This document shows positions 49,583-49,749 of a DNA stretch of 64,000 nt, one piece after another; the first letter of the stretch is position 1, and each line of letters starts with the position of its first letter. The stretch is from positions 256,001-320,000 of IMG/VR virus record IMGVR_UViG_3300010167_000010; one strand, given 5' to 3'. This DNA is from a virus (Duplodnaviria > Caudoviricetes). The notes below the pieces were generated by a model. The model was given only the letters and a program-made list of their open reading frames with translations, was not told the DNA's origin and ran no database searches. The translations under genes were made by a program, and so were the position numbers.

Positions 49583-49637
49583 CTAAATAATAACAAGTAA
49601 AGGATTACTTGTCTACAGAATATACAAGGAGGTATAT
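49582..49637 (+). promoter_or_regulatory. late-type promoter motif plus leader with two GGA-loop (CsrA-type) hairpins
   Basis: ACTAAATA (49582); ACAAGTAA-AGGA-TTACTTGT (49593-49612); TATAC-AAGGAG-GTATA (49621-49636) containing the RBS. Confidence 0.65.
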
Positions 49638-49727
49638 ATGAGAATAAATAGCGTTCCGGCGTTATTTGCCCAACGTCAACTCGGGATAAATGAACTCGAG
49701 TTATCAAAACAAATGCAACAGGATTAG
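49638..49727 (+). CDS. 29-aa flagellin N-terminus peptide (mini-gene or remnant; not in ORF track)
   Basis: MRINSVPALFAQRQLGINELELSKQMQQD aligns with [29 protein letters not shown] of 50492; AAGGAGG RBS. Confidence 0.65.
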   Translation: MRINSVPALFAQRQLGINELELSKQMQQD

Positions 49728-49749
49728 CACTTTCCCATAACTAATTATT

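Follow-up and report, generated by a model that had tools for sequence, protein, structure and literature searches.

A probable phage copy of the spirochaete flaB leader, a candidate two-site CsrA operator, cut off from its gene by an endonuclease-like gene

Why does a large phage carry two adjacent RNA hairpins, each presenting GGA in its loop, directly in front of a flagellin reading frame that ends after 29 codons? The locus lies in a virus record of 329,018 bp with direct terminal repeats and a G+C content of 29%, whose DNA is contained in termite-gut metagenomes; the window analyzed here is the 64,000-nt stretch comprising bases 256001-320000 of that record. The leader with the two hairpins heads a frameshifted stub rather than a functional flagellin gene, and the full flaB gene follows 854 nt downstream, past an endonuclease gene. 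In window coordinates, the features are:

49262-49582: 106-aa open reading frame, 5' of both hairpins
49573-49593, + strand: AT-rich element GTTAATTTAACTAAATAATAA, promoter-like, adjoining hairpin 1 on its upstream side and including the recurrent phage motif ACTAAATAAT
49593-49612, + strand: hairpin 1, 8-bp stem ACAAGTAA/TTACTTGT, loop AGGA (49601-49604); putative upstream CsrA-type site
49620-49637, + strand: hairpin 2, 6-bp stem ATATAC/GTATAT, loop AAGGAG (49626-49631), which is the Shine-Dalgarno (SD) sequence
49638-49727, + strand: 29-codon stub MRINSVPALFAQRQLGINELELSKQMQQD, a flagellin gene 5' remnant ending in TAG
49718-49724, + strand: ACAGGAT, the third GGA motif; lies at the frameshift and junction and is unstructured
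49750-50490, + strand: free-standing gene resembling those of homing endonucleases; Pfam detects NUMOD3, and by eye the N-terminus looks HNH-like
50452-50494, + strand: residual leader of the full flaB, with AAGGAU (50459-50464) without a stem and the SD hairpin AGTC-AAGGAG-GACT (50475-50488)
50492-51346, + strand: full-length, spirochaete-type FlaB, 284 aa (Flagellin_N, 2.9e-40; Flagellin_C, 5.9e-24)
51352-51375, + strand: terminator-like hairpin 3' of flaB, 9 bp with 6 G-C pairs, then an A/T-rich tail

A preliminary description of the locus, made from the sequence alone, had drawn attention to these hairpins as CsrA-type sites, and folding bears out most of its structural claims. Hairpin 1 (ACAAGTAA-AGGA-TTACTTGT) is the perfect 8-bp stem with an AGGA loop that had been described, and hairpin 2 (ATATAC-AAGGAG-GTATAT) does place the SD in its loop, although its stem has 6 bp, one more than had been claimed. 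Both are present in the MFE and centroid folds. The ATG at 49638 follows directly after hairpin 2, with the end of AAGGAGG 6 nt upstream of it, so that the downstream GGA overlaps the Shine-Dalgarno. The segment 49590-49645 folds at -11.3 kcal/mol (z = -3.8), and none of 200 shuffles folds as well; hairpin 2 has a z-score of -6.9. Perfect stems of at least 6 bp that enclose GGA in a loop of 4-8 nt occur only eight times on the + strand of the 64-kb window, and hairpins 1 and 2, separated by 8 nt, are two of these eight. With both of its GGAs in loops, the orphan leader thus has at least two GGA motifs of which at least one lies in an apical loop. The third motif that had been listed, ACAGGAT near 49718, is indeed there, but it falls in no predicted hairpin (unpaired in the centroid fold, z +0.6).

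The closest relatives of the phage flagellin are FlaB proteins of Treponema, Spirochaetales and Termitinemataceae (∼65-68% identity), and we therefore compared the phage leader with the leaders of 80 bacterial (spirochaete) flaB loci, a set drawn from genera other than Borrelia. An upstream GGA-loop hairpin followed by a GGA-loop SD hairpin, with variable stems, was found in 51 of the 80 leaders, against 0.86 in shuffled leaders. From these loci, 42 distinct leaders were picked for having both hairpins and aligned (alignment A4), a choice that raises the pairing at inner stem positions artificially but leaves the covariation and the matches outside the training set unaffected. The aligned leaders have GGA, and CA-GGAGGA at the SD, without exception, and differ in their stems; invariant GGA loops on freely varying stems indicate sequence-specific recognition of the loops. 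RNAalifold predicts hairpin 1 from the 42 leaders with compensatory changes at 6/6 pairs. By pair counts, helix 1 is 89% paired with both-side changes at 8 of its 9 pairs, values that were reached by 0/500 shuffles and that lie far above those of slid controls, and for helix 2 the paired fraction is only about 74%, whichever of two registers is chosen. The distance from GGA to GGA is 26 nt in the phage leader, compared with 19-31 nt (median 24) in the 42 bacterial leaders.

R1, a covariance model trained on nothing but bacterial leaders, finds the phage leader at 49590-49641 with 36.6 bits (E 1.4e-6 in the window), a score that falls among those of genuine bacterial leaders (36-52 bits), and the same segment is its top match across the whole 329-kb phage (E 4e-6). 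When the model was run on 290 kb of bacterial DNA, it gave 77 matches at E<0.1, all on the + strand, 76 of them just 5' of a flaB start and one before another gene, which marks the motif as specific to flagellin genes. Among these matches, 22 are leaders of tandem flaB paralogues outside the training set.

Two kinds of variation occur in the bacterial leaders. A second two-hairpin leader recognized by R1 lies ∼180-300 nt 3' of the first flaB, before a tandem paralogue, at L014, L016, L030, L032, L040, L055-L057, L066, L071, L078 and L087, among others; in these tandem-paralogue leaders loop 1 frequently reads AAGGGAU or AAGGAAU, with CAAGGAGGG as the SD. Leaders without hairpin 1 (L019, L035, L042, L043, L059, L063, L065, L070, L073, L075, L079, L081, L083, L085 and L086) have a plain (T)AAGGAGAT SD, often with CCGATA (sigma-28 -10-like) and a GGGTGGTGAGAACCC-type element upstream, and probably belong to a differently regulated flaB paralogue. 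The phage loci L101 and L107 carry GCCGATAA.

Six further flagellin loci on phage-like contigs have hairpin 1, each with a different stem, and the arrangement is conserved in phage flagellin loci. The 5' arm of hairpin 1 is GTGGAA in L001 (31.7 bits with R1), AAGAAAC in L005 and L006 (loop AGGGA), AAGGTGGC in L100, AAAGGTC in L107, ATCAGAAT in L108 and GAGAAC in L109; L103 and L104 have the SD hairpin only, and L101 and L102 have weak versions. The R1 score of the orphan leader is the highest among the phage leaders. L005 and L109 come from distant relatives of the phage, their neighboring Metallophos gene being 44-47% identical, and the endonuclease gene is absent from both of their flagellin loci. 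As a separate observation, L001 contains at 1864-1907, within a 267-aa open reading frame, a GGA-loop hairpin (GAUGGAA-AGGA-UUCCAGC; R1 21 bits, E 0.005) whose stem resembles hairpin 1 of L001's own flagellin leader.

Campylobacter flaA, Bacillus hag and Borrelia flaB already provide examples of an operator of this kind; the viral, orphaned setting is what is unusual. In Bacillus subtilis, flagellin synthesis from hag is reportedly governed by a FliW-CsrA-Hag partner switch. The phage leader is like that of hag in having two sites, the upstream one in a hairpin loop and the downstream one over the SD, and relief of hag comes via FliW; unlike B. subtilis, the phage has no CsrA or FliW gene, a search of its genome for csrA, fliW and fliS having found none of the three. 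Since the phage encodes neither CsrA nor FliW, control of its leader would depend wholly on host proteins. We found csrA in 4 of 5 spirochaete genomes that have such leaders, in three of them 4-8 kb from the flaB locus fetched.

The closest architectural counterpart is the flaA leader of Campylobacter jejuni (Dugar et al., 2016; PMC4894983), in which a pair of adjacent stem-loops, carrying ANGGA in their loops, lies directly 5' of the flagellin start codon, with the downstream one over the ribosome-binding site and with compensatory stem changes among relatives, and in which CsrA binds both loops, as judged by gel shift, footprinting and GGA mutants. The phage leader differs in being phage-borne, in heading a truncated flagellin stub and in coming from a setting in another phylum, and the likeness is one of architecture. 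Within the spirochaetes, CsrA represses flaB of Borrelia burgdorferi by binding the 5' UTR of its mRNA to block translation, as related in accounts that cite Sze et al. (2011) (PMC9481697, PMC12327847); the present copy differs from that of Borrelia in being viral and orphaned. A GGA hexaloop 5' of flaB is bound by CsrA in Leptospira (PMC8668096), and in T. denticola csrA adjoins fliW and sites are predicted near the SD of flaB1 and flaB2 (PMC9481697). The SELEX consensus for CsrA is RUACARGGAUGU (quoted in PMC8668096); hairpin 2 (AUACAAGGAGGU) agrees with it at 11 of 12 positions, and the consensus loop of the bacterial leaders, GCAAGGAUGC, is essentially its core. The match to a bacteria-only covariance model, together with the Campylobacter-like architecture, thus favors the earlier proposal of a CsrA-type flagellin operator, a reading of the sequence that is well supported by comparative evidence; from homology and architecture we infer that CsrA binds the phage leader RNA, and by analogy that it acts on the phage gene in the direction known from these systems. 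Another phage-borne flagellin is described for temperate Enterobacter phages (PMC13418256), where phage-encoded flagellin is under the control of TldR and alters the composition of the host flagellum. The present phage is like them in having its own flagellin gene, but TldR is described there as a transcriptional, RNA-guided repressor, and the present flagellin carries the post-transcriptional operator of the host.

How the leader came to head a stub may be read from the composition of the locus, which in its sequence is a mosaic whose parts resemble different phage lineages. Large phages harbor free-standing HNH/NUMOD homing endonucleases of the T4 mob/seg type, and the gene at 49750-50490 is like these in being a small NUMOD3 nuclease gene wedged in a conserved gene region, with paralogues elsewhere and mosaic flanks; the likeness comes from sequence, NUMOD3 (E 1e-10) being all that Pfam detected, with no HNH match at E<=0.01, and the HNH motif (HHILP...N...H) being visible by eye only. 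The gene has matches at three other places in the genome (G000:C1:71167-71838, or L097 268-939; G000:C1:30809-31411, or L098 10-612; and 47877-48329 of the window), two of these paralogues share a C-terminal WWTNG...CPEG(F/Y)WKGR module with a basic tail of 11-13 residues behind it, and the paralogue in L098 has a different N-terminal part. No relatives of the protein were found in IMG/VR. The stub aligns to flagellin residues 1-29 with 17/29 identities to each of phage FlaB, L001 and L005; it has lost one codon and the invariant flagellin residues N6 and S8, a 2-nt insertion shifts its frame into the TAG, and DNA homology to flaB ends near 49731. At the DNA level it is ∼60-65% identical to every flaB 5' end tested, the resident flaB being no closer than the others. 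The SD hairpin of the orphan leader (leader A) resembles that of L005, and the SD hairpin of the full flaB (leader B) resembles those of L001 and L109. Further upstream, the 21 nt of the AT-rich element (49573-49593) recur identically in L109, there 5' of its own, different hairpin 1, and related forms are present in L001, L005, L100 and L108; a sigma-70 consensus promoter scan gave 13 sites, not above the 14.7 expected by chance.

The layout is not confined to a single assembly. RNA-library contigs from a second termite-gut study, belonging to a relative about 94-95% identical, cover 49622-49998 and 50308-50832; they span the stub-endonuclease and the endonuclease-flaB junctions, so that a second strain, from a second study, has the layout too. 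All four sequencing runs were used as Logan contigs, which are no proof of transcription, do not show transcript ends, strand or expression level and are uninformative where stretches are uncovered; the high contig depth over 50546-51030 stems from flaB of other organisms. No endonuclease-free variant was found in the DNA runs X5 and X6, which hold fragments of the same phage, nor a pre-insertion allele of the stub in a metagenome pattern scan. An exact-pattern scan for the SD hairpin plus stub start returned nothing in IMG/VR, and two metagenome matches to that pattern (L105, L106) were rejected, the gene in L106 being unrelated, with a product that begins MRINS. A blastn search of the flagellin locus against GenBank phages gave no match. 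In the simplest reading, a segment with the endonuclease and flaB from another phage would have replaced most of the resident flaB, of which 31 codons would remain, together with the operator and the promoter-like element of the resident gene.

The full flaB was said earlier to have lost the leader, and this is so for the stem of hairpin 1 but not for the remainder. The 16 nt AAAGTCAAGGAGGACT 5' of its ATG (50492) are identical to the SD hairpin of the L001 flagellin leader and nearly identical to that of L109. This SD hairpin is intact, and an AAGGAU without a stem lies 20 nt upstream; R1 scores 50452-50494 at 22.6 bits (E 0.003), with helix 1 broken and helix 2 intact. The remnant lies inside the 3' end of the HNH-like gene, the last five codons of which (KVKED) read through the flaB SD hairpin. 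Because only the stem of hairpin 1 is gone, weaker control of the full flaB is possible, while the full escape from CsrA repression that had been suggested is not supported, half an operator being still in place. CsrA may still act on the working flaB by way of the GGA in its SD loop and the unpaired upstream GGA, and its control by CsrA is probably less tight.

Taking these results together, we think it probable that the two hairpins are a phage copy of the spirochaete flaB 5' leader, a two-site CsrA-type operator, that has been orphaned at this locus. In such a leader, a variable-stem hairpin with an (A)NGGA apical loop is followed ∼24 nt on by a second GGA in the loop of the SD hairpin. If the mechanism is like that at Campylobacter flaA, Bacillus hag and Borrelia flaB, a CsrA dimer of the host would bridge both GGA loops and block ribosome access, and FliW would release the mRNA once flagellin leaves the cytoplasm. 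The endonuclease-like gene lies after about codon 31 of the resident flagellin gene; past it come part of a second leader and then a complete flaB from a different lineage, and the working flaB has half an operator, namely the SD hairpin and the unpaired AAGGAU. Being cut off by the endonuclease gene, the orphan operator would control only the 29-codon stub; at most it could control stub translation or soak up CsrA.

Whether the orphan leader still does anything is a separate matter. As the stub lacks the invariant N6 and S8, the operator may be a fossil, that is, a homologue of CsrA operators that has been functionless since the arrival of the endonuclease gene and persists only because that event is recent. 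We regard this as a possibility to be taken seriously, if not the outcome we would expect. The stub is truncated, frameshifted and altered at invariant flagellin positions, no phage function needs the orphan leader, the working flaB has its own SD hairpin, and the stub's DNA is no closer to the phage's own flaB than to other flaB 5' ends. Against this, though not decisively, all 14 of 14 stem pairs and both loops are intact, the leader has the top model score among phage leaders, and a relative ∼5% diverged has both junctions, which means that the layout is not of very recent origin. Judged by how the stub has decayed, the rough chance that the leader would have stayed intact under neutral decay is ∼0.2, and selection is thus not demonstrated. 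A leader kept to titrate host CsrA, either on a short transcript or within the operon mRNA, thereby de-repressing host or phage flagellin synthesis, would be a distinctly unlikely explanation. It has a precedent in the C. jejuni flaA 5' UTR, which also titrates and antagonizes CsrA (PMC4894983), and the site is of high quality, as the SELEX agreement of hairpin 2 attests; the phage FlaB and the FliN-only gene described below would fit with interference in motility. However, the leader offers two structured sites only, the third GGA being unstructured, whereas known sponges have many; no terminator was found between 49640 and 49750, that is, 3' of the stub; the RNA-library contig continues from the stub into the endonuclease gene; and an Rfam scan of 49000-51600 at E<=10 returned noise only, with no match to a sponge family. 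These results speak against the short, discrete CsrA-sponge RNA of the preliminary description.

The hairpins might also serve something other than CsrA, as a 5' stabilizer against RNases, as a site for another RNA-binding protein or by modulating SD accessibility. A 5'-terminal hairpin can stabilize an mRNA, and some flaB leaders lack hairpin 1 entirely, but the invariance of the GGA loops on freely varying stems, the near identity of the bacterial consensus loop with the SELEX core and the experimental demonstration of CsrA control of flaB in Leptospira and, according to accounts that cite the original work, in Borrelia make such a role very unlikely. That both hairpins arose at random in AT-rich intergenic DNA is, in spite of the frequency of short AT-rich palindromes at 29% G+C, refuted in practice by the comparative data: the z-scores of folding, the small number of comparable hairpins in the window, an E-value of ∼1e-6 with the model and the recurrence of the pair 5' of flagellin genes in bacteria and phages leave chance a negligible prospect. 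A far more elaborate scenario can be drawn, in which phages of termite-gut spirochaetes keep the host CsrA operator on their flagellin genes and so plug the phage FlaB into the FliW-CsrA checkpoint, and in which the high-affinity orphan operator here acts as a decoy for CsrA, or as a sensor linking the endonuclease-flaB operon with the state of flagellar assembly, rewiring flagellin homeostasis together with the FliN-only gene; as a whole, we consider it unlikely.

If the two hairpins are indeed an orphaned phage copy of the spirochaete flaB operator, then an auxiliary flagellin gene is accompanied by a post-transcriptional operator of the host, the operator is conserved in several large-phage lineages, and phage flagellin would be made under the assembly checkpoint of the host and not outside it. 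The spirochaete flaB leader is itself a well-supported, specific RNA motif without an Rfam match, and could serve in annotating flagellin paralogues under CsrA control in Treponema and its relatives. The locus is also a clear natural case of a homing-endonuclease-like gene parting an operator from its gene, and allows a direct test of what each half contributes to a two-site CsrA operator.

Several further features of the phage genome deserve mention. The 10-mer ACTAAATAAT occurs in 24 copies in the 329-kb genome, compared with a mean of 8.2 for permuted patterns, and in 15 of the 24 copies an ATG follows immediately, without a Shine-Dalgarno. In the region of the flagellin locus it is found at 49582-49591, where it adjoins hairpin 1 and not an ATG, and as a variant at 49737-49749, the endonuclease gene starting with ACTAATTATT-ATG. 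The motif may act as a promoter of leaderless phage mRNAs, or else as an SD-independent start signal. The window also contains, at 54402-54668, a stand-alone gene of 88 aa for a FliN C-terminal (SpoA) domain (PF01052, E 3e-23), so that the phage has at least two flagellar parts, FlaB and the FliN-only protein. Calcineurin-like phosphoesterase genes flank the flagellin locus on both sides (48296-48850 and 51384-52061) and also adjoin flaB in the related contigs L005 and L109, at 44-47% identity. Finally, an 8-9 bp hairpin lies over codons 14-26 in both flagellin copies (49678-49702 and 50535-50569), that of the full flaB having a z-score of -3.5 and AAGGAA in a 16-nt loop; because RNAalifold gives no conserved structure in the first 105 nt of the coding sequence (-0.39 kcal/mol, 40 flaB 5' ends), these hairpins are not a feature of the family.
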